Source: a virus
Taxonomy: Duplodnaviria; Heunggongvirae; Uroviricota; Caudoviricetes
IMG/VR virus record: IMGVR_UViG_2744054872_000003
Span: 1-40,380 of that record
Direction: 5' to 3' (one strand)
Length of the DNA: 40,380 nucleotides
Shown here: in pieces, positions 3,290 to 34,885 of the stretch
Position numbering within the stretch: position 1 is the stretch's first letter
How the letters are laid out: every line of letters begins with the position of its first letter
Position numbers and translations under genes: made by a program
Notes under the pieces: generated by a model
Told to the model about the DNA's origin: nothing
Databases searched by the model: none
Seen by the model: the letters and a program-made list of their open reading frames with translations, nothing else

Positions 3290-3304
3290 TTACCCTAAAG
3301 GTAA
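3290..3304. promoter_or_regulatory. Operator-like inverted repeat TTACC-CTAAA-GGTAA upstream of the lysis promoter
   Basis: Perfect match to the recurring TTACC-N5-GGTAA motif; lies just upstream of a -35/-10 pair reading toward the holin gene. Confidence 0.5.
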
Positions 3305-3661
3305 TAAATTAATGTTATGTATTTTAAGGATGTAAAATACTTAATTTATTCGACAGGTACACATCTCTATTATTTTTGATGTAGCGGGTACCCACACTGA
3401 GCATCATATAGTTTTTTTAATTCTGACATGAATATCTTCATGTTTGATTTAGTATGTATCTCCTTATAAGAATTCATGATACAAGACGTTTGCTAACCAG
3501 ACATTTGAAAAATTCATATTGCTTTGAAATATATATTCAAAAAAAGACACCAAAATATATAAATAAATTACACCAGCATACCATAACAATATTTATCTTC
3601 ACATATATTGTATTTCCTACAGTGTTTATGTCCTGGCATTTAATACATAAAATAATTTTAT

Positions 3662-3685
3662 ACGCCCTTCCATGGGCGTTTTTTA
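3662..3685. terminator. Hairpin terminator at the 3' end of the tailspike gene
   Basis: ACGCCC-TTCCAT-GGGCGT stem with a T6 run on the plus strand and an AU-rich tract on the minus strand. Confidence 0.4.
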
Positions 3686-5941
3686 GTTCAATGCAGTCCA
3701 ATCATTACTAGTGAGACCATGAGACTTCCACCATTTACTTGTCCCTGGAAGCCATACCTCTTGACCAATAAATCGAGGTGTCACGTTACCAACAGGAGTG
3801 CTCATTCCGGCACTTGTAACAACATATCCATATTTTGCTGGGCCTGTTCCATTATTAAGGATTGTATCCTTTGTTATGCCTGTTGCCCCATTGTACCATT
3901 CCAAATCACTACCGCTAGCACCGCTAATAAATTCAGGCATAAAGTGTGAAAATGAATTATTGGCATCCACTCTTGCACCATGGTAAGCCTTATAACCGCT
4001 GGCTTGAGTATTGCTCCACCTCCCTCCTTTTACACTACCAGCAGATGAAGAGAAAAATCTTGCCGCATATCTTGCAAAACCGGCTATATTTATATCATTC
4101 AATTCATAATCAGAAAGAGACGCAATTGACATACCATCATTATTAGGAATACCTGATGCTATTTGTGGGTTTGATGCATATCCTGTTAATGTTGCTCCGT
4201 TAATATATATCCCCGTGCTTGGCCCAGTCTCTGATGTGTATATTCCAACTCCAGAACAGTTAAAAACCTGAAGATCTGTTATTCTAACATTTCTGGCACA
4301 ATTAAAGCTCAAGCCACGCTCAGCTGGTGAATAGGTATCGCGCATAGGATATCCGACATCACGCAAGCGAACTCCGTTAATGCTAATGTTGCTAGGATTC
4401 ATACCTTGTGTTACTGACTCAAAACCTTCAAATGTAATGCCATTACCAACATTGACTCCCACTACATTACTGACATGAATATCTGAGACATACCTTTTAA
4501 ATCCGATAACTCCATGGGCACAATTACGACCAACAACGTTGGTGATAATGCAATTACGTGTACCTCCTGGCACCGCTGCAGAACAATAAATTCCCAAATC
4601 CCGACAATTATCTACGAGAAGGCCGTCAATGACGGAATCTATAGCGCTTGCATACATCAGGCATGAATCAGGAGCATTAACAAGTTCAACATTCTTTAGT
4701 GTGCAACGTGCTCCACCAAAGGTAAGGATATCAGCTACAGCATAAAGCTTGTTGTTTTCTTGATTACCATCAATGCGTAAATCACGTATATGAACATCAT
4801 TAGCCCCCATGTTGTGAACAAGGTAGTAGGCCTGTGTTTTATCAACACAAATATCATCCGCAAATTTAAGCCATCCCCCAGCACCGATAAGTATTGTTTT
4901 CTCCTTGATCTGTAATCCAGTAAATATCCATGGATCTCCATCTTTATTCTTTGGAGTAATCTTTATTGCACAATAACCAGGAACAGAACCAGAATAATCA
5001 AGTGCTGCCTGTAGCGTCTGCTGATCTGTCATGCTACCAAACATAAAAGAACGCACATCAATACAGTCATCAACCTGTAATTCCAATTGTAGGCCATCAA
5101 AACGGTCAACAATAACAATACCATCTGCAGTAATACCCGTATTTGGAGTTACTGAGTACTTATTATAACTACCGGCAGAGTTTTTAACCGCCACCAGGCG
5201 ACCTTCAACGGTAGTGTTTGTTGTCAGCTCAGCCTGAGTGTCGAGCTCCATCGCAATGCCACCAATAAGTGAAGCTCCGGTAGGCTTTGCGAGTTCAATC
5301 AGCACATCTGAAGCAGAACCTGAAGGAGGTAAAACAACAATAGGGTTACCGCCGTTGTCGAAAGCTGGAATTTTATTAGCACGGGTAGCGGCATCAGGAA
5401 GTTGCGGTATCTGCTCCTGAACGCGCAACGTATTTCCTAGATTAGTACTGAGCAGTGTATCAACATAATTTTTAGTAGCAGCATCTTGAGGCTTTGAAGG
5501 ATCGCGTAAATTACGGATGTAATTGTTTAGCGCATCATAATAGTTAGCCACGAATGATGGTTTACGCAGCGCCAGGCTAAACCAACTTCTAACCTGCTGA
5601 ATCAACATCGTTAACTTATCAAACGCATCCTCATGCACCTCAGCAAAAAACTTACCCTGATTGCGCAGATCAGTTTCCTGTGTAACCGGTAGCTCTCGTG
5701 ATATAGAAATCTGATAATCGTTAGCCAACGCCTTCGACAGAATTACATTGCCTCCGTTATACCCTCCCGCACCAGTGACTGTGTAATCAGTATCAAGAAC
5801 CAGCACAGTGATATTCTCGTCAAGGTCAATCACCTGCACAACCAGATCAGATTTCTGGAATATCCTGAAGGTATAAGGGAATGTCGTTGTAACACCGTTA
5901 CCGGTGTATTCGTTGTGGTCAACTTCGGTTGAGACCGTCAT
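3683..5941 (-). CDS. Tailspike protein with T7 gp17-like N-terminal attachment domain and beta-helix-type central domain
   Basis: N-terminus YTGNGVTTTFPYTFRIFQKSDLVVQV resembles the conserved podovirus tail-fibre/tailspike N-terminal domain; central region has Asn/Gly/Val-rich repeats typical of a parallel beta-helix depolymerase. Confidence 0.75.
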   Translation of the reverse strand: MTVSTEVDHNEYTGNGVTTTFPYTFRIFQKSDLVVQVIDLDENITVLVLDTDYTVTGAGGYNGGNVILSKALANDYQISISRELPVTQETDLRNQGKFFAEVHEDAFDKLTMLIQQVRSWFSLALRKPSFVANYYDALNNYIRNLRDPSKPQDAATKNYVDTLLSTNLGNTLRVQEQIPQLPDAATRANKIPAFDNGGNPIVVLPPSGSASDVLIELAKPTGASLIGGIAMELDTQAELTTNTTVEGRLVAVKNSAGSYNKYSVTPNTGITADGIVIVDRFDGLQLELQVDDCIDVRSFMFGSMTDQQTLQAALDYSGSVPGYCAIKITPKNKDGDPWIFTGLQIKEKTILIGAGGWLKFADDICVDKTQAYYLVHNMGANDVHIRDLRIDGNQENNKLYAVADILTFGGARCTLKNVELVNAPDSCLMYASAIDSVIDGLLVDNCRDLGIYCSAAVPGGTRNCIITNVVGRNCAHGVIGFKRYVSDIHVSNVVGVNVGNGITFEGFESVTQGMNPSNISINGVRLRDVGYPMRDTYSPAERGLSFNCARNVRITDLQVFNCSGVGIYTSETGPSTGIYINGATLTGYASNPQIASGIPNNDGMSIASLSDYELNDINIAGFARYAARFFSSSAGSVKGGRWSNTQASGYKAYHGARVDANNSFSHFMPEFISGASGSDLEWYNGATGITKDTILNNGTGPAKYGYVVTSAGMSTPVGNVTPRFIGQEVWLPGTSKWWKSHGLTSNDWTALN

Positions 5942-6045
5942 GTTAAATCTCCAGATAGTCGCAGCACCCGTTGCGCCGCATATCTGGTTATTCTATTACC
6001 TGAAAAACCACATATGGATAGAAAGACTGTGAATATGAATAGATA

Positions 6046-6060
6046 TTACCTTTCGGGTAA
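6046..6060. promoter_or_regulatory. Operator-like inverted repeat TTACC-TTTCG-GGTAA
   Basis: Perfect motif copy upstream of the 6137 gene. Confidence 0.5.
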
Positions 6061-6099
6061 TTTGCAAAACGTGCTGGATAGCAAACAAATTATTTGATA

Positions 6100-6115
6100 C
6101 TGTATAAATATACAG
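6100..6115. promoter_or_regulatory. LexA (SOS) box CTGTATAAATATACAG
   Basis: Matches CTGT-N8-ACAG with an AT-rich centre, one mismatch from the E. coli consensus CTGTATATATATACAG; 21 bp upstream of the 6137 start. Confidence 0.65.
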
Positions 6116-6136
6116 TTATTGCATGGAGAAGATAAG

Positions 6137-6394
6137 ATGCAGCAGTATCACTATCCACTGGAAGACGGATTTACCGAAAGGATTCACACGCCGGGAGGCG
6201 TCAGGTCACTGGTGGAGGGATCGCATTTGATGAAATTACTCCGGGATCTCGATAAGGATGGATTTAATGTCGATGGCCCACTTGCCGAACTGACTGCACT
6301 GATTAACTACGTCACCAGCTCACAGATGTCTATGCGGGATCTGCAAACACATCTCGACTATTGTGCCGAACAATTACGAAAACAAACCAGATAA
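6137..6394 (+). CDS. Small protein homologous to the C-terminal domain of the adjacent antirepressor
   Basis: Aligns over about 85 aa with residues about 145-228 of the 6708..7394 product (shared pattern PL-G-IH-P-GV-L-E-S-LM-LL-DG-V-G-AELT-Y-RD-QTH-Y); GGAGAAG RBS. Confidence 0.55.
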   Translation: MQQYHYPLEDGFTERIHTPGGVRSLVEGSHLMKLLRDLDKDGFNVDGPLAELTALINYVTSSQMSMRDLQTHLDYCAEQLRKQTR

Positions 6395-6425
6395 GGTTTG
6401 CAATTGCCAAGTGGAGTGCTTATAT

Positions 6426-6440
6426 TTACCTTTGCGGTAA
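6426..6440. promoter_or_regulatory. Operator-like inverted repeat TTACC-TTTGC-GGTAA upstream of the antirepressor leader
   Basis: Perfect motif copy. Confidence 0.5.
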
Positions 6441-6707
6441 ATTTACATCGCACTCCTCTTGTGCCATAGTAATCGGGCACTGGCAAAATCCAGTGCCGGG
6501 ATTGGCGTCCCGAGTTACTACAGAGGCACATATGCCGCATAAGCGGTTTTTTTTATGTGTAAAGCGCACCTATTCTATGGTGGGCTGTGTGGGGGCACCG
6601 AAAGGTGCGCCGGGTCCTTTGTAGCCGGTTACGCCAACCCTGCACAGTTCACCACCAACCGATTGGCGTCGGTAGTGGTGATTAACCTAACTACAAAGGT
6701 GATCACT

Positions 6708-7394
6708 ATGACTGCTAACGTAACCCCATCTGTTTTTCATTTTGAATCAGAAGCAACCATTCGAGCCATTGTTATTGATGGAAATCCTTGGTTTGTTGCC
6801 AAAGACGTTATTAAAGCTCTTCAACTGACAAACCCCACTATGTCAATAAAATCTCTTGATGATGATGAAAGGGCTAAATTTAACTTAGGCCGTCAAGGCG
6901 AAACCAATATTATCAACGAGTCAGGCCTCTACACACTGATCCTCCGCTGCCGCGATGCAGTAACACCAGGCACTATCCCCTACCGCTTTCGCAAATGGGT
7001 TACAGGTGAGGTACTTCCTCAGATCCGCCGCACCGGAAGTTACATTAAAAACTCGCTCCCGCAGGAAGAACGCATAAAGATGGTTGCCGACCAGGTAGCC
7101 AACGCCACGGCGTCAGCAGTGATGCAGGCAATGAAGATAGAGAACAAAACCTACAGTGCCCCACTGAAGCCCGGCTACCGTAGCCTGATTCATTCGCCGT
7201 CTGGTGTTCTCGGCCTGACGGAGAACTCACTGCTGATGAATCTGCTGAACAAGTTACAGGAAGACGGGCACGATGTATCGGGCGCGGCAGCGGAGCTGAC
7301 CACCATGTTCTGCTACATCGTCGGTGTGAGCAAATGCCTGCGTGATATCCAGACGCACGCGGAGTACATCAACGACAAAGCAGGGTTCTTCTGA
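6708..7394 (+). CDS. Antirepressor, Bro-N domain protein
   Basis: N-terminus FHFESEATIRAIVIDGNPWFVAKDV...NESGLYTLILR fits the Bro-N pattern; AAGGTGA RBS before ATG at 6708; the ORF-track extension to 6555 looks non-coding. Confidence 0.7.
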   Translation: MTANVTPSVFHFESEATIRAIVIDGNPWFVAKDVIKALQLTNPTMSIKSLDDDERAKFNLGRQGETNIINESGLYTLILRCRDAVTPGTIPYRFRKWVTGEVLPQIRRTGSYIKNSLPQEERIKMVADQVANATASAVMQAMKIENKTYSAPLKPGYRSLIHSPSGVLGLTENSLLMNLLNKLQEDGHDVSGAAAELTTMFCYIVGVSKCLRDIQTHAEYINDKAGFF

Positions 7395-7466
7395 CAAGCG
7401 GTGGCACAGGGATGTGCCTTTAAATAATTCTGTACAGATTGCAGACTGTGGGTGAATAGCGTACTA

Positions 7467-7481
7467 TTACCTTAAAGGTAA
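7467..7481. promoter_or_regulatory. Operator-like inverted repeat TTACC-TTAAA-GGTAA overlapping the RBS of the 7494 gene
   Basis: Perfect motif copy directly abutting the AAGGAGG Shine-Dalgarno. Confidence 0.5.
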
Positions 7482-7493
7482 AGGAGGCGCGAT

Positions 7494-7661
7494 ATGACAG
7501 CGTTGAAAAATCGTACTCAGCACAATGAACAAGCCAAGCAATGCTGGGATGTCATTGGAAAAGTTATGCTTGGCCGCGCAAGCAAAGAGCGCGACAAGGA
7601 TATGGTTTACCAGACAGGAACATCTTTCAGCGACTTCAAGGCGGCATTTCGCTCCAAATAG
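7494..7661 (+). CDS. Small hypothetical protein (55 aa)
   Basis: Strong AAGGAGG RBS; protein-like composition; not in the ORF track because it is under 60 aa. Confidence 0.4.
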   Translation: MTALKNRTQHNEQAKQCWDVIGKVMLGRASKERDKDMVYQTGTSFSDFKAAFRSK

Positions 7662-7681
7662 AAGCACATCAGGAGTTTTCC

Positions 7682-8122
7682 TTGAAGTTTAACATTAGAA
7701 TATCTAATAGTTTTCTACATGGGGAAAGCAACACCCCTTTCGCTGTAGACGGACCTTTCCTTACTGATGATGAAATAAAAATCATACAAAGTTTTTTAGA
7801 GGATGTTGCCAATGGAAGGGCGCTTGTTGGAAAAAACAAGCCCTCGTGGGTTGATGATAACCATGATAAAATTCCCGGCTCAGACAATTATGAGCAAGAG
7901 AATTATTGGCATTATCATTGTGGGCCAACATGGTATCCAAACACATTTAAGAATTATACCATTAACTTAAATTTCAACCCTGGCGGAAGGCATTCTAATG
8001 AATGCATTCATTATGCAAAAAATGATAATGAAATTGTCATTGTTGGATTTTCAAGAGAACACATACCTTTCCTTTCATCAGATGGAAACAACAATCCGCT
8101 TTTTAATGATGAAGAAGAATAG
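7682..8122 (+). CDS. AT-rich accessory gene of unknown function (147 aa), probable TTG start
   Basis: ORF with no in-frame ATG after 7541; AGGAG RBS 6 nt before TTG at 7682; markedly AT-rich; acidic C-terminus; ends at a strong terminator. Confidence 0.45.
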   Translation: MKFNIRISNSFLHGESNTPFAVDGPFLTDDEIKIIQSFLEDVANGRALVGKNKPSWVDDNHDKIPGSDNYEQENYWHYHCGPTWYPNTFKNYTINLNFNPGGRHSNECIHYAKNDNEIVIVGFSREHIPFLSSDGNNNPLFNDEEE

Positions 8123-8143
8123 CCCGCGCTGCGGGCTTTTTTT
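8121..8143 (+). terminator. Rho-independent terminator
   Basis: AGCCCGC-GCT-GCGGGCT hairpin followed by T6. Confidence 0.75.
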
Positions 8144-8215
8144 GTGGACGAAACAAAAGTCAGTGCTACACTCATTGACGCCACATTGAGGTGGCTTATA
8201 GATGGAAATTTCACA

Positions 8216-8377
8216 ATGAAAAAAGCATTTGCTGCACTGTTCGTTTTGTTGTCTCTGGTAGCTTCAACTCAGGCCTTTGCCGGTCGTTGTCAGCACGACA
8301 GCGACACTGCTGCTGACGGCTCACGCTGCGGTGGGCGTTCTGCGGATTCCCGCCCAGGCGGCGGTGGCATTCGTTAA
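8216..8377 (+). CDS. Small secreted Gly/Cys-containing peptide (53 aa precursor)
   Basis: Signal peptide MKKAFAALFVLLSLVASTQAFA then a 31-aa Gly/Ser/Asp-rich tail with two Cys; weak RBS. Confidence 0.3.
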   Translation: MKKAFAALFVLLSLVASTQAFAGRCQHDSDTAADGSRCGGRSADSRPGGGGIR

Positions 8378-8383
8378 AAACAA

Positions 8384-8400
8384 GGCCGCGAAAGCGGCCT
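8384..8400 (-). terminator. Intrinsic terminator after the 8409..8705 gene
   Basis: GGCCGC-GAAA-GCGGCC hairpin followed on the minus strand by TTGTTTTT. Confidence 0.55.
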
Positions 8401-8412
8401 GTGACATGTCAC
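8401..8412. repeat. 12-bp palindrome GTGACATGTCAC, copy 1
   Basis: Perfect palindrome overlapping the stop codon of the 8409..8705 gene and abutting a terminator hairpin; identical copies at 25932 and 28197. Confidence 0.6.
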
Positions 8413-11375: not shown

Positions 11376-11380
11376 TTAAT

Positions 11381-19785: not shown

Positions 19786-20108
19786 TACTCACCCCCATTG
19801 CCGTACAGAGTTTCAGCCGCTGATTTTTCTACATCCCCGGAAACAGGAGCGATCGCCATATCAGTGATCTGCAGATCGGCGCTGCGATTAACACCATCGT
19901 CAGTTTCTCTGGCAGACAGGCCTCGAATAACAGCCTTTGCAGTTATCATCACTTCTGTTCCAACGCCCTGAGGTTGAGCCTTCAGCTTATTCAATGTGTC
20001 GTTATTCAGCGTGATGCACAGCCCCCACGGGTATTCATCGCGAGTTCTGGTTTCTCCGCTCTCATCCTGGTAGCTGTCAGTGCCGGTTTTGAGGTTTACG
20101 AGTTCCAT
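19785..20108 (-). CDS. Hypothetical head or neck protein
   Basis: AGGAG RBS before ATG at 20108 (the ORF-track start is a GTG two codons earlier). Confidence 0.4.
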   Translation of the reverse strand: MELVNLKTGTDSYQDESGETRTRDEYPWGLCITLNNDTLNKLKAQPQGVGTEVMITAKAVIRGLSARETDDGVNRSADLQITDMAIAPVSGDVEKSAAETLYGNGGE

Positions 20109-24954: not shown

Positions 24955-24991
24955 TTGACATTTAACGCACTAATTATTACCTTTCAGGTAA
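24955..24991 (+). promoter_or_regulatory. Candidate promoter (TTGACA-N17-TACCTT) with overlapping operator TTACC-TTTCA-GGTAA at 24977..24991
   Basis: Consensus -35; -10 lies inside the operator half-site; reads toward the tRNA gene. Confidence 0.45.
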
Positions 24992-25313: not shown

Positions 25314-25390
25314 GTGGCATTAGCTCAGTTGGACAGAGCAACCGCCTTCTAAGCGGTTGGTCGCAGGTTCGAATCCTGCATGCCGCGCCA
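25314..25390 (+). tRNA. tRNA-Arg, anticodon TCT (reads AGA)
   Basis: Hand-folded cloverleaf: 7-bp acceptor stem GTGGCAT/ATGCCGC (one G-U), D-arm GCTC...GAGC, anticodon stem ACCGC/GCGGT with loop CTTCTAA, T-arm GCAGG-TTCGAAT-CCTGC, discriminator G, encoded CCA. Confidence 0.85.
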
Positions 25391-25553
25391 GAATCACGCC
25401 TAAGGACCGTGATGCCAGAAGTTCCAGGGGCTTGGCGGTGATGGTTTCCCTTGAAGGACTATCACAGCCCTTTTTACAGCAGGACGCCATTGCGATGACT
25501 TCATGCTGTAAACCCGTACAGCCACGGAAGGCATAACTCATTGCTTCCAGTTC

Positions 25554-25577
25554 GCCCGGTTCGCCGGGCATTTTTTT
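25554..25577 (+). terminator. Rho-independent terminator after the tRNA region
   Basis: GCCCGG-TTCG-CCGGGC tetraloop hairpin followed by T7. Confidence 0.7.
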
Positions 25578-25943: not shown

Positions 25944-25947
25944 AAAC

Positions 25948-26017: not shown

Positions 26018-27493
26018 TTAAGCATAGGGATCGTAATCTGTAATGGCCTTGCCTTGCTGGTTCTGCTGACCTGGAATTCGCAGACGCTTCGACACAGGGA
26101 AAGCAAACGTCAGCAATAGCGCATCGCCTTTACCCGGCGAACGCCCAAGACGCTCTTTGATATCTTCCTTCGGTTCGATAACGATTTTACCGTCCACACG
26201 AACTTTGTACTCTGCCGCCGACAGGTCGTCTGCAGTTTCCTGGTCATCCAGCATGCCGCCCAGCCTCAGCCATGTCTTACATGAGTTGAACATCTCCCCA
26301 CGCTTGTTAAGCATCTGCGGGTCAGTGGACGCACCGCCGAACGGAACAAGTTGCCATGTACGTCCCCAGCCATCACCGATTGACTTCAAACCGGTTCCGT
26401 AACCGAAGTCGATGAACACCGCGTCAGCCTGGTACTGGTCTTCAAAGTCAGCGATACGCTTCGCCATAATCAGATCGTCGGTGGTCTTGTTGCCGGTCCA
26501 CAGCACCTTACTGTGCAGCCCCTGCCGCAGGTATATCGCCGCGTCATCAACACCGGAGTATGCAGGGTCAACGCCGATTATCACCGGAGCATGTGCCACC
26601 TGCGCAGCAGTTACCACCCGTTTCATTGCCTCGTCAGTAAGACCGGTAGGGATAAACTGCAATTCAGATGCATCAGGGAATATGCCGCGCACACGGATTT
26701 TAACGAAGTCGCTGTCTTCCCCGTAGTCATCAACCCATTTCTGCAACTGCTGTTTGTTGGTGCCTTCCACCGTCCGGCTGTCAATCTGCGCAGTTTTCCA
26801 GCGGTGTTTATATTTGCGGAAACATTCGCGGAAACGTCCGGTATTACGCGTCGGGTTTCCGAACGCCACCCAGATAATCTCAGTGTCTTCGTCCGTCAGC
26901 GCACCCTCTGCTACCTCCCACACCAGATCGGCAATGTTGGATGCTTCGTCGAAAACCACGATGATGCGTTTGCGCTCGTTGTGTAGTCCGGCGAATGCCT
27001 CAGTGTTGTGCTCAGACCAGGGGATTGCGTCAGCTCGCCACCGCTTGTCGTGCCCAGGATCATTGCTGTACATCGCGGTAGCGGTACAGGTAAACCAGTC
27101 TTTCGTGATGGCAAGGTTCGACCACTTGATAATTTCCGGCCAGGTCTTCGTTCGTAGCTGGTTGTCGGTGTTGGCGGTCACCACGACCTTACAATCCTCG
27201 CAAGTGGACATGCCCCAGTTGATCAGCATTGAGATGAATGCGGATTTACCAATACCGTGACCAGAAGCGCGTGCCAGCATAAGCGGCTGATATCGCGTCT
27301 CTGGATTCTGCAGGTGATCACGTATCTCTCGGAACGCATCAGCCTGCCACTGACGTGGACCTGTGGCATGTGCTAATTCAGTCCCCTCTTCCCCCCACGG
27401 GAACGCATAGAGGGCATAGCCAAGCGGATCGTGAGTGAACCCTGCAATATCTTCGATTAACTGCTCTTCAGGAGATAACGCTGCATCTGTCAC
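26018..27493 (-). CDS. Terminase large subunit
   Basis: Walker A-like ASGHGIGKS near the N-terminus, acidic nuclease-type C-terminal half, 491 aa; overlaps the small-subunit gene by ATGA. Confidence 0.85.
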   Translation of the reverse strand: MTDAALSPEEQLIEDIAGFTHDPLGYALYAFPWGEEGTELAHATGPRQWQADAFREIRDHLQNPETRYQPLMLARASGHGIGKSAFISMLINWGMSTCEDCKVVVTANTDNQLRTKTWPEIIKWSNLAITKDWFTCTATAMYSNDPGHDKRWRADAIPWSEHNTEAFAGLHNERKRIIVVFDEASNIADLVWEVAEGALTDEDTEIIWVAFGNPTRNTGRFRECFRKYKHRWKTAQIDSRTVEGTNKQQLQKWVDDYGEDSDFVKIRVRGIFPDASELQFIPTGLTDEAMKRVVTAAQVAHAPVIIGVDPAYSGVDDAAIYLRQGLHSKVLWTGNKTTDDLIMAKRIADFEDQYQADAVFIDFGYGTGLKSIGDGWGRTWQLVPFGGASTDPQMLNKRGEMFNSCKTWLRLGGMLDDQETADDLSAAEYKVRVDGKIVIEPKEDIKERLGRSPGKGDALLLTFAFPVSKRLRIPGQQNQQGKAITDYDPYA

Positions 27494-28083
27494 TGATTAC
27501 CATCCTGACGTTCTTTGAGTCGCTTCCTGGCTGCCGCTATGCGATCAGCAATTGTCACATTCACATTAACATCCAGGCGTTCTTTGAATGCGTTGACGTC
27601 GACGTGCTTACCAATCAGTTCTAGGTTCTTCACCTTGTCAGGCCATTTAATTTTTTTGAGGATTGTCTCTATCGAATCCTCGTTCATGTTCATGATGGTC
27701 GATGACAGATCAAAGCCACTAAGCGTAGTGCGCCAGATTTTCGGCCACTCACGGATTGGTTTAAGGCTCCCATCGTCGTTGAGGATGTCGATCACGTCCA
27801 TCTGGTCGATCTCCACCAGGCGCATGAGAACGTAATCAGCACTGACGCGCATTCGTTTGTTGCGCTCCTCCATCAACTCGGCAATCCGTTTTTGAATGCG
27901 TTCATCGCGCATCATGACACTGGCTTTAACTGCCGCTGTATTTGGTGAGAATCCTGCGTTAATCGCTGCCTGAGTCTGGTTTTCAGGCGTTTTGATGTAT
28001 GACTGGCAATAAGCCTCCTGCATTGCTGTTAGTGGCTTAAATTGCGTTGATTTGCGTTTATAGGTTTTAGGTTCAGCAGGCAT
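27490..28083 (-). CDS. Terminase small subunit
   Basis: TAMQEAYCQSYIKTPENQTQAAINAGFS fits the terminase small-subunit HTH pattern; start taken at ATG 28083 with GGTGG RBS, because the ORF-track N-terminal extension translates a repeat region. Confidence 0.7.
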   Translation of the reverse strand: MPAEPKTYKRKSTQFKPLTAMQEAYCQSYIKTPENQTQAAINAGFSPNTAAVKASVMMRDERIQKRIAELMEERNKRMRVSADYVLMRLVEIDQMDVIDILNDDGSLKPIREWPKIWRTTLSGFDLSSTIMNMNEDSIETILKKIKWPDKVKNLELIGKHVDVNAFKERLDVNVNVTIADRIAAARKRLKERQDGNQ

Positions 28084-28085
28084 AA

Positions 28086-28118
28086 TAACCACCGTGGTAA
28101 TAGTTACCGTTGTGGTAA
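28086..28118. promoter_or_regulatory. Two tandem operator-like sites upstream of the terminase operon
   Basis: TAACC-ACCGT-GGTAA at 28086..28100 (one mismatch) and TTACC-GTTGT-GGTAA at 28104..28118 (perfect), giving the appearance of a GTGGTAATAGT direct repeat. Confidence 0.5.
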
Positions 28119-28136
28119 TAGTACCATGCAAAATAA

Positions 28137-28155
28137 AGCCGCCATAGTTGGCGGC
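28137..28155 (-). terminator. Intrinsic terminator between the nin-like region and the terminase genes
   Basis: GCCGCCA-ACTAT-GGCGGC hairpin followed on the minus strand by TTTATTTT. Confidence 0.55.
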
Positions 28156-28196
28156 AGTATTCAAAACCCATCAAATTCATCATGCATAATCTACTC

Positions 28197-28208
28197 GTGA
28201 CATGTCAC
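28197..28208. repeat. 12-bp palindrome GTGACATGTCAC, copy 3
   Basis: Overlaps the stop codon of the 28205..28546 gene, upstream of the 28137..28155 terminator. Confidence 0.6.
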
Positions 28209-28546
28209 ACTATTAATTTCGTTTCATGCCAGCCTTTAGTCACCCAGCATTGTGAGTCACCATTACACGGACATGAATTAACTGGAACTCTCTCGCCGCA
28301 CTTACCGCAACGTTTTCTGCTGATCGATTTTATACGCCCGCGCACCCTGGCATCATCCTGGCGGATCAGCAGCGCGATGTACTCGGCCATTTCATAGGGA
28401 TCTCGACCAGGGCGCCGGGCGGCGCAGTTCCGCTCCAGCATTTCAATTTCCTGAGCATCAAGCACAATCTCCAGCTTACGTACACCGGATTCAGCTTGTC
28501 TGGCTCTCTGAGCGGCTTTGCGCTCTGCTGCTGATTTAGCCATCAA
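28205..28546 (-). CDS. Small basic protein with C-terminal Cys cluster (possible zinc ribbon)
   Basis: 113 aa; Arg/Ala-rich helical N-terminus and C-terminal CGKCG...CPC motif; last gene before the terminase module, so a late-regulator role is possible but unproven. Confidence 0.45.
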   Translation of the reverse strand: MMAKSAAERKAAQRARQAESGVRKLEIVLDAQEIEMLERNCAARRPGRDPYEMAEYIALLIRQDDARVRGRIKSISRKRCGKCGERVPVNSCPCNGDSQCWVTKGWHETKLIV

Positions 28547-29077: not shown

Positions 29078-29886
29078 TTCACCTCCTGCGGCGGTTCTGG
29101 TAGCGGCATCCAGTGTGTGACATTGCTAATCAGGTCATATTCATTAGTTTGAGGATGGTTGCCGCTATCATCTCCATATTTAAGACTCTCCATAAAACCA
29201 TAATGCTTATTCCCATTAACTCTCACAAAGCCGTAATAAGCAGGTATAACGCCGATCTCACACGTAACCAGTAAAGGAAAACTAGTTCTCCAATTTAGCT
29301 CGCCAATTACAGGCATTCGCTCACTACAGCTTATCCAGCCATCCGGAGTTACCGGATAGTTGCCAGCGGCCTCGGGCATATCCGGACCTTTGCGAATAGC
29401 CTTTGCAAGCTCAACAGGGTCATCGTAAAGCCAGTCGCCAGTTTGTGGGTGATTTGCTTCTGCAAGCTGCGCAGCCCATTCAAGACCATCTTTTTGACCT
29501 TGGAGATAATCAAGCGGCAACTCTTCATGATTACTTGCAGGTTCGGCACCATAGAGCATGGCAGCGCGGCAGGCGTTCCAGCCTTCATCAAAACCGACTA
29601 TGCCATTATTTAAAGACGGACGAGCATCTGGCACCACCGGCACTGGCTTGGCTATATATAGCGGCTGAACATACCAGCCCTTTGATAACCAACTGTCAGC
29701 AATGTTTTTACTCCTGGTTATTGCCGGAATACCTAAGCCATTGTCTGAATGTAGCCATGCCACCGGCTCTGCTTCCAGCGATGCCAGTGCAATCCGTGCC
29801 AGTTCCATTTGTTCGCCACGGGTAAGCCCGTTATCAAGCGGATTTTTAATGAATAATTCGATACGTTCTTTGGTAATAGTGGTCAT
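29074..29886 (-). CDS. DUF551-like phage protein
   Basis: C-terminal THWMPLPEPP is the characteristic end of DUF551 proteins. Confidence 0.5.
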   Translation of the reverse strand: MTTITKERIELFIKNPLDNGLTRGEQMELARIALASLEAEPVAWLHSDNGLGIPAITRSKNIADSWLSKGWYVQPLYIAKPVPVVPDARPSLNNGIVGFDEGWNACRAAMLYGAEPASNHEELPLDYLQGQKDGLEWAAQLAEANHPQTGDWLYDDPVELAKAIRKGPDMPEAAGNYPVTPDGWISCSERMPVIGELNWRTSFPLLVTCEIGVIPAYYGFVRVNGNKHYGFMESLKYGDDSGNHPQTNEYDLISNVTHWMPLPEPPQEVK

Positions 29887-29888
29887 AG

Positions 29889-30080
29889 CTATTTCACCTT
29901 AATCTCAACATTTCGCAGCTTTAGCTCTACTGGCAGGTCTGACTTTCCTGTTAACGCTAATGCGAGATTTTCTGGAGTAATGAGAGCTGTTATTGTTTTC
30001 CCCATCGCCAGACGAATAATCAGTCGTATCTCGCGATCGTCACATGCTCCCGGTCGAACAATTGATATTTGCCCGTTCAT
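29889..30080 (-). CDS. Small hypothetical protein (63 aa)
   Basis: GGAGAGTGAG RBS before internal ATG at 30080; upstream part of the ORF-track frame overlaps the preceding gene. Confidence 0.35.
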   Translation of the reverse strand: MNGQISIVRPGACDDREIRLIIRLAMGKTITALITPENLALALTGKSDLPVELKLRNVEIKVK

Positions 30081-30081
30081 C

Positions 30082-30693
30082 TCACTCTCCTTTGATGCGA
30101 ATGCCAGCGGCGCGTGGCACATTAACTTCCACGATGCGCACAGTTGGTTTGTACATCTCAATCGCAGTCAGCCAGTCAGCGCCAGTCATGCGCTTTTCTG
30201 CATCGCCATTAGTCCACTTAACCGGTACACCAATAGCCTTCATCGCGATTTCTATTTCCCCGGCAATGGCGCTTTTTCCGCAACCAGTAAAACCAGATAC
30301 AACGACCAGAACTTCACCTTTGGCTGGTTTTATTCCCCGCGCTTCCAGTTCTGCTATGCGCTTACTTCCATCCGAGATAACACCTTCGTAATACTCACGC
30401 TGCTCGTTGAGTTTTGATTTTGCCAACTCCAGTTGTTTTGTTAGTTCCGCAATACGGCAAACATCGTTGATACGCGTTTCCTCTAATGCGTTGATCTCAT
30501 CCAGTAGTGCCAGCACGGTTTCTGGTCCGGCCAGAAATTTGAAGGCGTTGAGGGCATCAATATCAACACCGCTATCTTTAAGTTCCTGTTCGCTTATCAG
30601 ATCATCATCAACTGGCAACATTAACAGGCGTTCCATTGCCGGAATTGCACGTTCCGCCGCCTCACGCAGTGCCTGGTAATTAATTTCGCTCAC
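30082..30693 (-). CDS. Ead/Ea22-like protein
   Basis: N-terminus MSEINYQALREAAERA and an internal coiled coil (AKSKLNEQREYYEGVISDGSKRIAELEA) resemble lambdoid Ea22-like proteins. Confidence 0.45.
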   Translation of the reverse strand: MSEINYQALREAAERAIPAMERLLMLPVDDDLISEQELKDSGVDIDALNAFKFLAGPETVLALLDEINALEETRINDVCRIAELTKQLELAKSKLNEQREYYEGVISDGSKRIAELEARGIKPAKGEVLVVVSGFTGCGKSAIAGEIEIAMKAIGVPVKWTNGDAEKRMTGADWLTAIEMYKPTVRIVEVNVPRAAGIRIKGE

Positions 30694-31121
30694 TGGTTGC
30701 CTCCTTTGCGAAGCTGGGCAGCAAAGTCACGGATAGTGCCATCAAGGTCTGGACACAACAGATTGTCAGCAAACATCTCAACCCCCTGTGCACGAATTTC
30801 AGCCAGGAAAGTATCGGTGGCTGGGGTGTCTGATTGCAGAGACTTTGCGCGATAGTCATTCCACCCTCTTGCATACATGGGATTAACTTGCACTCCATCT
30901 TTTACGCAATATGCCTGCCCTCCACGGTTGATAACCTTGATTTCGTCCATATCGCCAGACTTCAGCCCCGCATTCTCCGCTGCCAGTGCCGCGCACTTGG
31001 CCTCTGATTCAGCAAATTTACGCACCAGATATTCAGCGTTTGTTTCGTTAACCTTTAAATCTCGTGGGATGCATTTACCTTTCAGAAAACCATCCATCTC
31101 AATTAGTGACATTTGTTTCAT
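30690..31121 (-). CDS. Hypothetical nin-region protein
   Basis: Start taken at ATG 31121, which is ATGA-coupled to the upstream small ORF; the ORF-track start is an upstream GTG. Confidence 0.45.
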   Translation of the reverse strand: MKQMSLIEMDGFLKGKCIPRDLKVNETNAEYLVRKFAESEAKCAALAAENAGLKSGDMDEIKVINRGGQAYCVKDGVQVNPMYARGWNDYRAKSLQSDTPATDTFLAEIRAQGVEMFADNLLCPDLDGTIRDFAAQLRKGGNQ

Positions 31122-31294
31122 TTCTTCCCACTCCGCCACATCGCATTAGCACGCACCAGTTGCACTTCCAGTTGCGTTGCCAAATCGCTGATCAGCTTTG
31201 CCACGCTGCGCATATCAACGGCACCACATTCTGCTTTCAGTTCCGAAGCCATCTCATGCCCGGCGGCAACTAACCCTTTGATATTACTTTCCAT
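31118..31294 (-). CDS. Small hypothetical protein (58 aa)
   Basis: GAGGG RBS; translationally coupled to the next gene; under the 60-aa track cutoff. Confidence 0.3.
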   Translation of the reverse strand: MESNIKGLVAAGHEMASELKAECGAVDMRSVAKLISDLATQLEVQLVRANAMWRSGKK

Positions 31295-31355
31295 CTTTAC
31301 CCTCGCTTATCCACATAACTTATTGATTACATTGATAACTAAAAAGATCGTCGAT

Positions 31356-31700
31356 TCAGAACTCTTCGATGTTCCAGCCACCACCTGCTTTCTTTGGTTT
31401 AACCGTTACCCCGATGATTCGGAACGGATACTGATCTGCGGCGACTTTGGTTTTCACCCTGGCGTCGTCGGTCCAGAGACCTTTCACTTCGTGCAGTCCC
31501 ATCTCGCCGGTGGCGAGCATCACAGCAAAATCGGGCGTATAGAACGTGTTGTCAGCTAACCGCAGCTTGATACCCTCAAATCGATACCAGACGATTTCTC
31601 CTGCACGTTTACGCAGCTCAAGGTGCTGGCAATACGCAGATTCTGTTTTGTTCATCTGGCCTGTTTTGAGTCGACCAAGAGCCTGTATCTGTTTTCTCAT
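31356..31700 (-). CDS. DUF1064-like phage protein
   Basis: ESAYCQHLELRKRAGEI...YTPDFAV...HEVKG pattern resembles DUF1064; AAGAGG RBS overlapped by an operator site. Confidence 0.55.
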   Translation of the reverse strand: MRKQIQALGRLKTGQMNKTESAYCQHLELRKRAGEIVWYRFEGIKLRLADNTFYTPDFAVMLATGEMGLHEVKGLWTDDARVKTKVAADQYPFRIIGVTVKPKKAGGGWNIEEF

Positions 31701-31703
31701 GAT

Positions 31704-31718
31704 TTACCTCTTAGGTAA
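31704..31718. promoter_or_regulatory. Operator-like inverted repeat TTACC-TCTTA-GGTAA overlapping the DUF1064 RBS
   Basis: Perfect motif copy. Confidence 0.5.
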
Positions 31719-31765
31719 TTAAGAACCACATAAGACACGAAATCAATAGAGTTTAGAATATTTTG

Positions 31766-31780
31766 TTACCTGATAGGTAA
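31766..31780. promoter_or_regulatory. Operator-like inverted repeat TTACC-TGATA-GGTAA
   Basis: Perfect motif copy, 48 bp upstream of the previous one. Confidence 0.5.
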
Positions 31781-31817
31781 TCATTGAGGCGTAAAAAAAT
31801 GCGCTATCGCGCTGGTA

Positions 31818-32603
31818 TTACTTGATAAATCCTGCCGCCTTTCCCCGCCTGTATTCCTCCATCAGCCACTGCGCCGGTGTTATTCCCCCAAGGGTGGCGG
31901 CGTTAGGCATGCACCCGAAACTTCGCCCTGGTGGATGGTAAACGTCTCTCCCTGTGTCCGGAGGTGTACTCATGGGCTCTCGCTTTGCCTGTATGCTGAT
32001 CACCGGATCGGGTATCTGCTGTCCGGAAGCTACCTTTTTCGCCCAATCATCGAGCAGCCTGCGCGCGTGTTTCTCAACCTCAATCTCGCTAAGCTGGCGC
32101 TGATACATTGCACGGCGGGTATCACATACGACCCAGTACATAACCGGATGTCGCCACGGGAATCTTTCGGGACCACCAGGATATAAACTTTTTTCCTTGC
32201 TGTACCGGTGAAACTCCGCCATCACATCGTCAATGGTGACGCCAAGAACCATCTTGCTGTCTTTACACCACTTGATGAATTGCCCTGGCGACGGCCAGAA
32301 CGGAGACTCACTGGCGCGGGCGTGGCGCATACCAGCAGAAACCTGTTCACGGGTTCGGATCCCCCCTTCGGCAAACGCAGCAATCCACTGCTGTTTTGCA
32401 GCAACTTCCTGCTCTGGCGTCTTCAGGTTGGTTACCACTGCCGCCGGAAACAGTTGTTTCAGCTGTTTGAAAAGGGCATCAACAAGCCTCTCTGCTGACA
32501 TGTTCACCACGTTGTCATTGTTGGTGTACTGATGCTCATAACCTGACATGCGAGAAAGGGCTTCTCCGTCACGGTTTTGTATCGCGGTAAAAACGTTGTT
32601 CAC
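31818..32603 (-). CDS. Replication protein P-like (helicase loader)
   Basis: Central block LFPAAVVTNLKTPEQEVAAKQQWIAAFAEGGIRTREQVSAGMRHARASESPFWPSPGQFIKWCKD closely parallels the equivalent block of lambda P as recalled; start taken at GTG 32603 with GGAGGA RBS, overlapping the O stop. Confidence 0.7.
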   Translation of the reverse strand: MNNVFTAIQNRDGEALSRMSGYEHQYTNNDNVVNMSAERLVDALFKQLKQLFPAAVVTNLKTPEQEVAAKQQWIAAFAEGGIRTREQVSAGMRHARASESPFWPSPGQFIKWCKDSKMVLGVTIDDVMAEFHRYSKEKSLYPGGPERFPWRHPVMYWVVCDTRRAMYQRQLSEIEVEKHARRLLDDWAKKVASGQQIPDPVISIQAKREPMSTPPDTGRDVYHPPGRSFGCMPNAATLGGITPAQWLMEEYRRGKAAGFIK

Positions 32604-33415
32604 AAGAAATCCTCCCATGCTTCAGGGCTGTTCCAGTGCGGAACGTTGTTATCAGGTAATGTTAATTGCTTCTGTCTGCTAATCTGCAGCCTCCTTGCCA
32701 GCTTCTGCTCCCACTGTGCCTGATGGTATGCCTTACCCTCAGCCATCCAGTAAATTCTGAACTCTGCAAGTTCCTGTGCCGTTGGCAGACTGTCCAGGTA
32801 GATCCCCTGCAATGAGCTTTTCCGAAGAAAGTCATCTGATGGTTGCCATTGTTCATGCATGACAAATTTGCCTAATTGCCCTGGCCCACCAGGAGGAACA
32901 AAGTTATTCATCACGGCGTTGTTTGCGCCGGGGTCATGAGACACAGAATCCCCGTTTTTTGTCCTGCTCTCCCTCTCTTGGTTAAATGACTGGTTATATG
33001 ACTGGTTCTGGATCCCGTTTTTGGGATCATTCAACATCCCGTTTTTGGGATCATTCAACATCCCGTTTTTGGGTATATTCCCGTTTTCGGTAAAATTACC
33101 GTTTTCGGGTTCATTACCCCCTTCCCGGTTGCCTTTAATGTTCCCGTTTTTGGTTATATTAAGAGAGAAAACCCGCACTCTTTTTGTCGCTCCCTTTCTC
33201 TCTCCGGTATCTGAAATAAGCCCCATTTTCATGAGCGATATAAGCCCGGCCTGTACGGTTTTTTTATTCAGGCAAGTGTCTTTAACGAGGCGTTCTATGC
33301 TGGGGTAGCAGAGGTTATATTCATCGGCTCTGTCAGCCATCGAGAGCAGTATGAGCTTTAATGATGAGCTACCTGGATCTGTCTCCCAGGCCCAATCTGT
33401 TGCATGTCTGCTCAT
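32600..33415 (-). CDS. Replication initiator (O-like) with origin iterons inside the gene
   Basis: N-terminal HTH-like domain, internal Asn/Gly/Pro repeat region encoded by the iterons, helical C-terminal domain; immediately upstream of the P-like gene. Confidence 0.6.
   Translation of the reverse strand: MSRHATDWAWETDPGSSSLKLILLSMADRADEYNLCYPSIERLVKDTCLNKKTVQAGLISLMKMGLISDTGERKGATKRVRVFSLNITKNGNIKGNREGGNEPENGNFTENGNIPKNGMLNDPKNGMLNDPKNGIQNQSYNQSFNQERESRTKNGDSVSHDPGANNAVMNNFVPPGGPGQLGKFVMHEQWQPSDDFLRKSSLQGIYLDSLPTAQELAEFRIYWMAEGKAYHQAQWEQKLARRLQISRQKQLTLPDNNVPHWNSPEAWEDFL
33012..33160. repeat. Iteron array (putative replication origin)
   Basis: Two perfect 24-bp tandem copies of TCCCGTTTTTGGGATCATTCAACA at 33012..33059, then at least four degenerate copies with core CCCGTTTT(T)GG. 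Confidence 0.7.
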
Positions 33416-33430
33416 GATTAATCTCCGCTA

Positions 33431-33631
33431 TCAGCTTGAATGTTGTGGGGAGGAATTAATCATGATCTGCTTAATCTCTGCCCTGATGCGACGGTTTGAT
33501 TCCATGGTGCACTCAACACAGTGTCCGTTGTAAACCCAGCGTTCACTGTCATGTCCGTGCTTACATGGTTTTCCGGTGTAGTAGCGTTTAAGTCCGCGCT
33601 TTGCGGCATCAATACGTGTAATGATTTCCAT
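33431..33631 (-). CDS. Small Cys/His-rich protein (possible zinc finger) in the cII-equivalent position
   Basis: CKHGH...CVEC motif; start uncertain, chosen at MEIITR with AGGG RBS; alternative upstream starts at 33667 (ATG) and 33694 (TTG). Confidence 0.4.
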   Translation of the reverse strand: MEIITRIDAAKRGLKRYYTGKPCKHGHDSERWVYNGHCVECTMESNRRIRAEIKQIMINSSPQHSS

Positions 33632-33711
33632 GGTAAGCCCTGTTATTAGTATTGGGATTACGGTCATTTTGTGCTGACACAAAAAAAAGATCAACCAGAT
33701 TTGGTTATTTA

Positions 33712-33726
33712 TTACCTTTGAGGTAC
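33712..33726. promoter_or_regulatory. Operator-like site TTACC-TTTGA-GGTAC (one mismatch)
   Basis: Lies between the tR1-like hairpin and the 33431 gene. Confidence 0.4.
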
Positions 33727-33740
33727 GAATAGATATGAAA

Positions 33741-33760
33741 AGACCGCCGGGTAGCGGTCT
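33741..33760 (-). terminator. tR1-like terminator after the cro-like gene
   Basis: AGACCGC-TACCCG-GCGGTCT hairpin followed on the minus strand by TTTTCAT. Confidence 0.55.
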
Positions 33761-33781
33761 ACAGAGGGTTGTAGCTGGATA

Positions 33782-34012
33782 TCATGAGTAGAAGAAGTAT
33801 GCCAGTTCTGCTTTTGAGCGCAGCCATTGTCTTGTTTTACAGGCTTTAAAAAGCCCATTCATCAATACTTTACCTGGCATTTTTCGCTTGCCTGTTAAGT
33901 GAGTCTGGATATAGTGACTCGTCGTTCCGGCTTCCTGTGCGAAGGCTTCACGCTCATCCGGAGTAAGTGCAAGCCAGTGCTTTTTGAAATCGAAATGTCC
34001 GTTATCGCTCAT
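33782..34012 (-). CDS. Cro-like small DNA-binding regulator
   Basis: 76 aa, transcribed divergently from the repressor gene across the tripartite operator region; HTH-like segment around AQEAGTTSHYIQTHLTGKRKMPG. Confidence 0.5.
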   Translation of the reverse strand: MSDNGHFDFKKHWLALTPDEREAFAQEAGTTSHYIQTHLTGKRKMPGKVLMNGLFKACKTRQWLRSKAELAYFFYS

Positions 34013-34048
34013 AGCTATTGCCTGATATTTATTTCAGATAATAAATAT

Positions 34049-34111
34049 TCACCCATAAGGTAACAAAAATCAAGGATAGTTACCTATGAGGTGCATTTAC
34101 CTGTTGGGTAA
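34049..34111. promoter_or_regulatory. Tripartite operator region with divergent promoters (OR-like)
   Basis: Three motif copies: TCACC-CATAA-GGTAA (34049..34063), TTACC-TATGA-GGTGC (34080..34094), TTACC-TGTTG-GGTAA (34097..34111); the minus-strand TTGTTA-N17-TATTAT promoter for the cro-like gene overlaps the first. Confidence 0.65.
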
Positions 34112-34166
34112 TATTGCTTTAAATTGAATCATCTACTGATTCATATATGAGACGATTTTCCAGAAA

Positions 34167-34751
34167 ATGAAAAGTATCCAGGACGTCCGCAGGCAAAATC
34201 TCAACGACTTGATCGACCGTGAATTCAATGGTGTTCAGACGCGGATGGCAGAAAAACTTGGAACTCAGGCAAATCTGGTAAACCGCTGGGCTCTTGGCAA
34301 GAAGGTTATCGGCGACCAGGTTGCGCGAAAAATTGAAGCTGCCGCCAATAAACCCCGTAACTGGCTTGATATCGATCGCTCGCTTTCTCAGGAAGGTTTT
34401 CAGCCTGTCGGCCCAAGCGACATTGGTCAGCTGGCGGCTCACAACCTGGAACGCTGGATGAGCGAAAGCCGCGACCTTTCAACACAGGGAAAACTTCACC
34501 GCGCATCCGGCGTCGCCCAGGTGACAATCAGCCGCCTGTTAAACAATGAGGTCAGCGTTTCCATTTCCACCCTGGAGAATGTTGCATCTGCATTCGGGCG
34601 TCACGGATATGAACTACTGATTCATCCGCATGACCCTGCAACTATCAACTATGACCGCTCGCGCTACGCATTGTTACCTGAAACAGAGAAGGCAAAGATC
34701 GAAAGTTACATTGAATTTGTCATCAACCAGAACGAAAAAAGCAAACAATAA
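34167..34751 (+). CDS. Prophage repressor (cI-like) with HTH domains and no S24 peptidase domain
   Basis: N-terminal XRE-type HTH (MAEKLGTQANLVNRWALGKKVIGDQVARKIE) and a second HTH-like segment; no Ala-Gly/Ser/Lys autocleavage module; sits upstream of the early-left promoter in cI-like orientation. Confidence 0.65.
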   Translation: MKSIQDVRRQNLNDLIDREFNGVQTRMAEKLGTQANLVNRWALGKKVIGDQVARKIEAAANKPRNWLDIDRSLSQEGFQPVGPSDIGQLAAHNLERWMSESRDLSTQGKLHRASGVAQVTISRLLNNEVSVSISTLENVASAFGRHGYELLIHPHDPATINYDRSRYALLPETEKAKIESYIEFVINQNEKSKQ

Positions 34752-34772
34752 AACTATAGTTTTCAGCAAGTA

Positions 34773-34798
34773 AGCCGCCTCATGGCGGCTTTTTTATT
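34773..34798 (+). terminator. Rho-independent terminator after the repressor gene
   Basis: AGCCGCC-TCAT-GGCGGCT hairpin followed by TTTTTATT. Confidence 0.75.
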
Positions 34799-34808
34799 GC
34801 CCTTGCAA

Positions 34809-34885
34809 TTACCTTACGGGTAATTTTTTTAACTCATATCTATTGACACCAAACCAAATACGCATAATCATTACCTCAACGGTAA
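34809..34885 (+). promoter_or_regulatory. Early-left promoter with two flanking operators (pL/OL-like)
   Basis: TTACC-TTACG-GGTAA (34809..34823), -35 TTGACA (34843..34848), -10-like CATAAT/TAATCA, then TTACC-TCAAC-GGTAA (34871..34885). Confidence 0.6.

Follow-up and report, generated by a model that had tools for sequence, protein, structure and literature searches.

A genome-wide survey was made of a 15-bp inverted repeat, TTACC-N5-GGTAA, in a window of 40,380 nucleotides (the whole stretch of DNA analysed, positions 1 to 40,380 of the IMG/VR virus record IMGVR_UViG_2744054872_000003). Apart from host DNA at its left end, the window is a prophage ~97% identical to Escherichia phage phiV10 and reversed relative to the phiV10 record. 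Fifteen sites were found at about 11 promoter regions, spanning 31.6 kb, and on homology and position it is very probable that these palindromes, together with one more ahead of the integrase gene (int), are the operators of Rep, a tetrameric helix-turn-helix (HTH) repressor homologous to the Rep protein of phage SPC32H.

The copies were tracked by an exact scan of the whole window, which gave eleven perfect sites (starting at 3290, 6046, 6426, 7467, 24977, 28104, 31704, 31766, 34097, 34809 and 34871), three with one mismatch (28086, 33712 and 34049) and one counted site with two mismatches (34080), which is flanked by two sites of the right-operator-like (OR-like) cluster. The sequence-only reading of this DNA had listed the same number of copies, 15, and had put the chance expectation at about 0.04; the computed value for perfect copies is 0.03 against 11 observed, and none of 100 shuffled sequences reached at least 11. 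An unbiased scan, in which all 5-mer arms with gaps of 3-8 bases were allowed, also placed TTACC with gap 5 at the top (11 copies), and the next independent palindromes had 2 copies. TACCT with gap 3 (5 copies) and ATTAC with gap 7 (3 copies) were not taken as independent because they are sub- or super-strings of the TTACC sites.

The coding status of the sites was determined with a gene map that combined phiV10 homologues and, in the gaps, open reading frames (ORFs). Non-coding DNA makes up 7.5% of the window and all 15 sites lie wholly within it, as the sequence-only reading had said, with a chance probability of ~1e-17 when the terminase gene terS is started at ATG 28083 as in the epsilon15 and Tyrion annotation (a start at TTG 28164 would put two sites inside the ORF). 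Other matches with two mismatches numbered 20 against 16 in shuffles, and all were in coding DNA except that at 92-106 in the host DNA upstream of yfgH; they are treated as noise because they are near the shuffled expectation and nearly all coding, and the match at 92-106 is probably a chance one. No perfect copy was found in the 50 kb of host chromosome adjoining the prophage, where the commonest palindromes had at most 3 copies and none was TTACC. A host-wide element was rejected on this 50 kb of flank only.

Within the 15 sites ACC and GGT are invariant and the mismatches are confined to the outer TT and AA. At the centre, A or T occupies 28 of 30 symmetrised positions, and the extended consensus reads a-TTACC-t-n-W-n-a-GGTAA-t. 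The flanks showed no consistent asymmetry, and neither flanks nor centre separated the sites of the right and left operators (OR and OL) from the dispersed ones.

The candidate binder and the region around its gene are as follows.

34167-34751, plus strand: Rep, candidate master repressor (PDB 5D50, Pfam HTH_3, phiV10 p40)
33782-34012, minus strand: cro-like small regulator, divergent from rep, 100% identical to phiV10 p41
34049-34111, no strand: OR-like cluster, made of 34049-34063 (one mismatch), 34080-34094 (two mismatches) and 34097-34111 (perfect)
33712-33726, no strand: site with one mismatch, past the terminator of the cro-like gene and 81 nt upstream of p42

Over residues 1-190, its whole length, the product of 34167-34751 can be aligned with SPC32H Rep (PDB 5D50, E=3.5e-42), and its only matches among solved structures are the SPC32H Rep entries. 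It is 99.5% identical to phiV10 p40 and 43% identical to the epsilon15/SPC32H Rep, with an N-terminal HTH domain carrying the helix NLVNRW and with middle and C-terminal domains for oligomerisation. This helix, as NLVNRW or NLVSRW, is kept throughout the Rep family wherever the motif occurs. The Pfam search of Rep gave HTH_3 (HTH_3/XRE type) only and did not find the S24 peptidase domain, and by this domain content Rep is not a self-cleaving repressor of cI/LexA type and belongs to the Rep/Ant family. The sequence-only reading had proposed a cI-like HTH repressor acting on early, late and accessory promoters; an HTH repressor is favoured by the Rep homology, the epsilon15 annotation, the operator positions and the data on phage ZX5 given below, and the cI type had to be given up for want of the S24 domain.

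Passages of PMC9638917 describe SPC32H Rep as a tetramer on palindromic DNA, whose DNA-binding pairs come from different dimers, and report its removal from DNA by the tetrameric antirepressor Ant. The paired domains are placed ~100 A apart in passages of PMC9986798, where the repression mechanism is said to have "not been extensively characterized". By analogy, each 5-N5-5 site of the window would take one pair of N-terminal HTH domains, and a Rep tetramer with two such pairs could hold two operators simultaneously.

In the OR-like cluster the distances between site starts are 31 and 17 bp; epsilon15 and SPC32H have the mirror-image spacing, 17/30 bp. A PR-like (rightward early) promoter, TTGTTA-17-TATTAT (34066-34038, minus strand), contains the site 34049-34063 in its spacer, and the sites 34080 and 34097 are on the rep side; the three sites would control the divergent cro-like and rep promoters. 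The cro-like protein, which matches phrog_35 'transcriptional repressor' (E=5.6e-13), probably also uses this cluster.

A site-by-site comparison was carried out with phiV10, epsilon15, SPC32H, Tyrion, BUCT554 and three metagenomic or genomic relatives. In the epsilon15 RefSeq record seven features are annotated as 'protein_bind, repressor, lysogeny' (before terS, before gp3, in the gap between gp19 and the tail fibre gene, three at OL and one before the nin-like genes); they read ATTACC-N5-GGTAAT and are orthologous in position to sites of the window, and in the phiV10 record these sites are not annotated. Epsilon15, SPC32H, phiV10, Tyrion and BUCT554 have the motif at equal relative positions, and the orthologous positions matched were terS, gp3/p06, ant-tailspike, lysis, OL, OR, nin and int. 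These repeats were reportedly proposed as repressor sites in epsilon15 by Kropinski and colleagues.

In all 11 genomes examined the motif is unchanged, while Rep identity ranges over 41-100%. A scan of viral contigs with Rep returned only Reps of 99-100% identity, and a query with the N-terminal domain gave fragments only; an alignment search with Rep found relatives 41-80% identical, and five of the contigs of these all carry the motif. The hosts of the compared Rep prophages are Escherichia, Salmonella, Enterobacter, Cronobacter and Klebsiella. A text search of the literature for the motif with 'repressor' and 'phage' gave nothing relevant.

At five promoters the operator starts on the last T of the -10 hexamer, namely those of the early-left operon (PL), the nin-like genes, terS, an operon like immI of phage P1, and the gene at 7494.

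34809-34885, plus strand: PL module, with operator 34809-34823, -35 TTGACA 34843-34848, -10 AATCAT 34866-34871 and operator 34871-34885
31704-31780, minus strand: nin promoter module, with operator 31780-31766, -35 TTGATT 31746-31741, -10 CTTAAT 31723-31718 and operator 31718-31704
28086-28126, minus strand: terS promoter region, with extended -10 TGgTACTAT 28126-28118, first operator (O1) 28118-28104, second operator (O2) 28100-28086 with one mismatch, and ATG 28083-28081
6398-6440, plus strand: promoter and operator of the immI-like operon, with -35 TTGCAA 6398-6403, -10 TATATT 6421-6426 and operator 6426-6440
7439-7481, plus strand: promoter and operator of the 7494 gene, with -35 TTGCAG 7439-7444, -10 TACTAT 7462-7467 and operator 7467-7481

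The spacer between -35 and -10 is 17 nt at the PL, nin, immI-like and 7494 promoters. The modules of PL and nin can be superimposed base for base in the order operator, 19 nt, -35, 17 nt, -10, operator, and the ATG of the DUF1064 gene at 31700 follows the nin module. The 62-bp operator pair is found at PL in 9 genomes and at nin in 7 genomes; across genomes the arms, the -35 and the 62-bp spacing of the PL module are invariant and its operator centres and promoter spacer vary, a pattern which reads as a clear phylogenetic footprint for both modules. At terS a TGnTAnnAT element abuts O1 in 9 genomes, although the hexamer itself differs (TACTAT, TAGTAT or TAGAAT), and O2 is 18 bp downstream of O1 and ends 2 nt ahead of the ATG.

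The start of terS bears on these two sites. In phiV10 and in the output of the Prokaryotic Genome Annotation Pipeline (PGAP) it is TTG 28164 (ORF 27490-28164), with translation running through both operators, and the epsilon15 and Tyrion starts come after the sites. ATG 28083 is preceded by GGTGG and opens the conserved N-terminus MPAEPK, and on these sequence features it is the more likely start.

With an operator that starts at the final -10 base and extends over the transcription start, these five promoters are expected to be closed to RNA polymerase when Rep is bound, and promoter occlusion is, judged by position, the most likely mode of action at PL, nin, terS, the immI-like operon, the 7494 gene and the OR sites. 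At PL and nin the upstream operator, at 62 bp (~six helical turns, hence on the same helix face), could be held by the same tetramer, which would strengthen the binding.

A further element was observed upstream of terS at 28212-28130 (minus strand), where the palindrome GTGTGACATGTCAC lies inside a promoter-like GTGACA-18-CATGAT and is followed by a strong terminator at 28157-28130. This palindrome-terminator unit is kept in relatives, the same palindrome and a terminator are found near ant in SPC32H, and the unit resembles a lambda PR'-tR' unit that would need antitermination.

Three operators stand singly near late genes, each with a second conserved motif and a -10-like hexamer beside it.

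3290-3304, no strand: single operator ahead of the lysis cassette (start of the first gene at 3197, minus strand)
6046-6060, no strand: single operator in the divergent intergenic region between the tailspike and small antirepressor genes
24977-24991, no strand: single operator between the p06-portal late operon (minus strand) and tRNA-Arg/p03 (plus strand)
3269-3246, 6016-5993 and 24935-24912, minus strand: CATATRTGGTT late motif with -10-like hexamer

The motif CATATRTGGTT is followed after 7 nt by TATGAT, TAATAG or TAATAA and lies upstream of the lysis, tailspike and p06-portal operons. Six matches with at most one mismatch were found against 1.18 expected, the motif also being noted at 31734-31724, and it is invariant in 5-8 diverged relatives with variable flanks. 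The unit looks like a late promoter without a -35 that would depend on an activator, for which p55 (28205-28546) is a candidate. The sites 3290, 6046 and 24977 are about 21, 30 and 42 nt upstream of this motif. On the minus-strand side of site 3290 there is TTGAAA-18-TATGAT (3275-3246) with the late motif at 3269-3259, and orthologues of this site are present in phiV10, epsilon15, SPC32H and Tyrion. Site 6046 has the late motif CATATGTGGTT (6016-6006) 30 nt downstream and a LexA box (6100-6115) 40 nt away, and it is orthologous to the annotated epsilon15 repressor site 19895-19911.

Site 24977 is orthologous to the annotated epsilon15 repressor site 2931-2947 and is conserved in 8 genomes. The placements of the sites in the sequence-only reading were right, and to its assignment of 24977 to the tRNA we add the p06-portal late operon, which is at least as likely a target because the tRNA is 323 nt away. 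A divergent promoter from 24977 toward the tRNA was looked for, and on the plus strand only a TTGACA 16 nt from the operator was found, with no usable -10. A degenerate second operator (a GGTAAT half-site 62 bp from 24977, at the p06 late promoter) was also considered and is treated as coincidence because the tailspike and lysis promoters do not keep this spacing.

Just past the window end at 40380 a sixteenth conserved site, TTACCTTAAAGGTAT (L007:2351-2365), was observed 57 nt upstream of int, and it has the same single mismatch in phiV10, epsilon15, SPC32H and Tyrion. Its position suggests that int may also be under Rep control.

A functional result is available for phage ZX5, which is near-identical: when the repressor was overexpressed, free phage disappeared and the RNAs of holin and endolysin fell by 99.97-99.99% (PMC9782041). 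The ZX5 repressor is reported to be identical to that of phiV10 (PMC9782041), which is 99.5% identical to the Rep of the window.

Several points weigh against Rep as the common silencer of all these sites. The binder, the promoter assignments and the looping are what we infer from the observed sites, their statistics, placement and conservation. The effect on lysis RNA in ZX5 could be indirect. Simple occlusion fails at 3290, 6046 and 24977, because these sites are upstream of the presumed core promoters, and no recognisable promoter is attached to site 33712, which has orthologous one-mismatch sites at 33112 in phiV10 and at 35365 in Tyrion. The motif is constant despite divergent Reps, which means that no co-variation singles out Rep over, for example, the cro-like protein. 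At the late single sites (lysis, tailspike and p06-portal) silencing by Rep would have to be less direct, through pairing with other operators or by blocking of an activator.

This constancy is the starting point of a different explanation, in which another regulator, such as the cro-like protein or p55, is the main binder of the sites beyond OR and OL, and these serve lytic timing and not lysogenic silencing. Lambda Cro uses the operators of cI, the same genomes conserve both the cro-like protein and p55, and three of the sites are at the usual activator positions upstream of the late promoters without -35. The dispersed sites, however, carry exactly the motif of OR and OL, Rep keeps its recognition helix wherever the motif occurs, and the annotators of epsilon15 assigned the sites to the repressor; moreover, sharing by the cro-like protein, which is to be expected, would complement the binding of Rep and not replace it. 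We regard this explanation as unlikely.

It is equally improbable, in our estimate, that the dispersed sites outside the immunity region are true stoperators, elongation roadblocks at which transcripts coming from promoters further upstream would be halted. Cluster A mycobacteriophages provide the established case of such repressor roadblocks (PMC9283540). In the window terS O2 (28086-28100) and site 33712 are just past intrinsic terminators with no space for a full promoter of their own, and these two are the only sites that suit the roadblock reading; three sites are only 2-12 nt from a start codon. Against this, the five sites in exact -10 register, terS O1 included, are kept so in relatives despite the change of the hexamer, no site occurs in the short gaps within the long structural operon, and the sites, being palindromes, make the orientation dependence that defines stoperators impossible.

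Far less probable is an RNA hairpin near ribosome-binding sites or a methyltransferase/restriction target: the copies 7467, 28086 and 31704 overlap Shine-Dalgarno regions, 19-mers around the sites fold with -1 to -5.4 kcal/mol and the phage encodes an MT-A70-type methyltransferase, but the stems are weak with no T-tract after them, the arms are invariant without compensatory changes over 15 sites and 11 genomes, many copies are upstream of promoters (O1 of PL and of nin) and hence untranscribed, and a modification or restriction target would not be restricted to 7.5% non-coding DNA. The fixed arms, which never co-vary around a variable centre, point to protein recognition rather than an RNA stem, and the hairpin or terminator reading was rejected on its weak energies and lack of covariation.

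By motif, position, Rep homology and Ant/LexA context the prophage is, as far as sequence can place it, a member of the epsilon15/SPC32H Rep-operator system. The two share ATTACC-N5-GGTAAT at orthologous positions, a homologous Rep without an autocleavage domain, a small Ant at the position annotated as ant in SPC32H (with a LexA box before the window copy), synteny and the guaA integration site. They differ in that the window prophage is of phiV10 type with a Rep only 43% identical, has an additional antirepressor with a Bro-N domain (BroN-Ant) and isrK/C4 RNAs under an operator of its own, and has an operator before the 7494 gene; epsilon15 also has three sites at OL where there are two here.

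The proposed antirepressor circuit consists of the following parts.

6100-6115, plus strand: perfect LexA box CTGTATAAATATACAG, 21 nt ahead of the small antirepressor gene
6137-6394, plus strand: small antirepressor (Ant), located where ant is annotated in SPC32H
6708-7394, plus strand: second antirepressor, a Bro-N domain (Pfam, E=5e-20) fused to an Ant-like C-terminal domain

The small Ant is 98.8% identical to phiV10 p24 and matches phrog_450 and an anti-repressor family. Residues 145-226 (the last 80 residues) of the BroN antirepressor match phrog_450, the same family. Between 6398 and 7394 the promoter-abutting operator is followed by an isrK-like small RNA (6477-6553), a terminator (6534-6547), a C4 antisense RNA (6573-6659; both RNAs by Rfam) and the BroN antirepressor, an arrangement that matches the immI operon of phage P1. 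Since Rep is without the S24 self-cleavage domain, induction is expected to be driven by antirepressors: it would proceed through the small Ant under LexA control and the BroN-Ant, the latter controlled by a putative Rep operator and by an antisense RNA of C4 type. LexA control of the SPC32H Ant was reportedly described by Kim & Ryu in 2013.

The P1 C1 network has 22 dispersed operators, including Op51 at the immI c4-icd-ant operon, and these are 17-bp asymmetric sites, ATTGCTCTAATAAATTT (PMC8546580). Here too a single repressor would act, by the positions of its sites, at separate early, accessory and late-control promoters, an antirepressor operon with a C4 antisense RNA (6573-6659) is under a putative repressor operator (6426-6440), and inactivation would go through protein partners and not through cleavage. 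P1 is unlike in being a plasmid prophage, the operators of the window are symmetric 5-N5-5, and Rep shows no sequence relation to C1, which makes P1 an analogue and not a member of the same system.

The stoperators of cluster A mycobacteriophages (L5 gp71 type) are asymmetric 13-mers, bound by a monomer, whose orientation tracks transcription and is required, and they block elongation (PMC9283540). The sequence-only reading had called the arrangement closer to a stoperator one than to a lambda-type two-site immunity region, and the stoperator likeness is true loosely: in both there are more than a dozen sites, established (PMC9283540) or here putative, for a repressor genome-wide in short non-coding gaps, with silencing that reaches beyond the early promoters. 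The sites of the window differ in being 15-bp palindromes which suit an HTH pair, have no orientation and mostly overlap -10/+1 of recognisable promoters, unlike oriented asymmetric sites inside operons. By analogy the network resembles the dispersed P1 C1 operators more than stoperators, and it is sequence-related to neither.

With lambda the prophage shares a tripartite OR flanked by the divergently oriented repressor and cro-like genes, OL at an early-left promoter whose -35 is TTGACA, and likely cooperative site pairs. It is unlike lambda in that Rep is without S24 self-cleavage and ten additional sites are outside the immunity region; also, repressor and operator diverge together in lambdoid phages, whereas here the operator is constant across the genus (11 genomes).

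The idea of such a network is already known, as the sites are marked in the annotation of the sister phage epsilon15 and structural work exists on the Rep/Ant switch of SPC32H. The modest additions are the -10/operator register at five promoters, the duplicated two-operator 62-bp module, the P1-like C4/ant module under a putative Rep operator, and operators that have not diverged across divergent Reps. The result is a near-complete map of likely Rep targets, which covers packaging, tailspike, lysis and nin genes, the second antirepressor operon and int. This prophage family is common in E. coli and Salmonella, and its phages serve as O157 and Salmonella reporter phages and alter O-antigens; knowledge of the control points will help engineering and the prediction of induction.

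A wider proposal is offered tentatively, as somewhat less likely than not. The operator code may be frozen genus-wide at ~16 places, as a change of DNA specificity would need many simultaneous compensating mutations and the number of operators would thereby lock it. If so, immunity would diversify elsewhere, at the interface of the Rep C-terminal domain with Ant and through O-antigen modification, and the phages would cross-repress one another at the DNA level. Single operators might also pair across kilobases through Rep tetramers, looping the prophage.

The position of the prophage in the host was read from the two window ends.

1-1272: host segment at the left end, with yfgH 109-627 and yfgI 643-1182

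Bases 97-1272 match the E. coli chromosomal genes yfgH and yfgI. At the right end the window stops at the start codon of the integrase, and in a closely related lysogen guaA is just past that point. By its sequence the prophage is a phiV10/epsilon15-like Uetakevirus (the epsilon15-like podoviruses) at guaA, inserted between yfgI and guaA. The order along the window is lysis cassette, tailspike, antirepressor region, structural genes, terminase, nin-like genes, replication, cro-like gene, rep, recET and int. The tRNA-Arg(TCT) gene (25314-25390, plus strand) was observed to overlap the phiV10-style ORF p04 (25320-25571, minus strand), and p04 is probably not a gene because PGAP calls tRNA-Arg and not p04 in the related lysogen.

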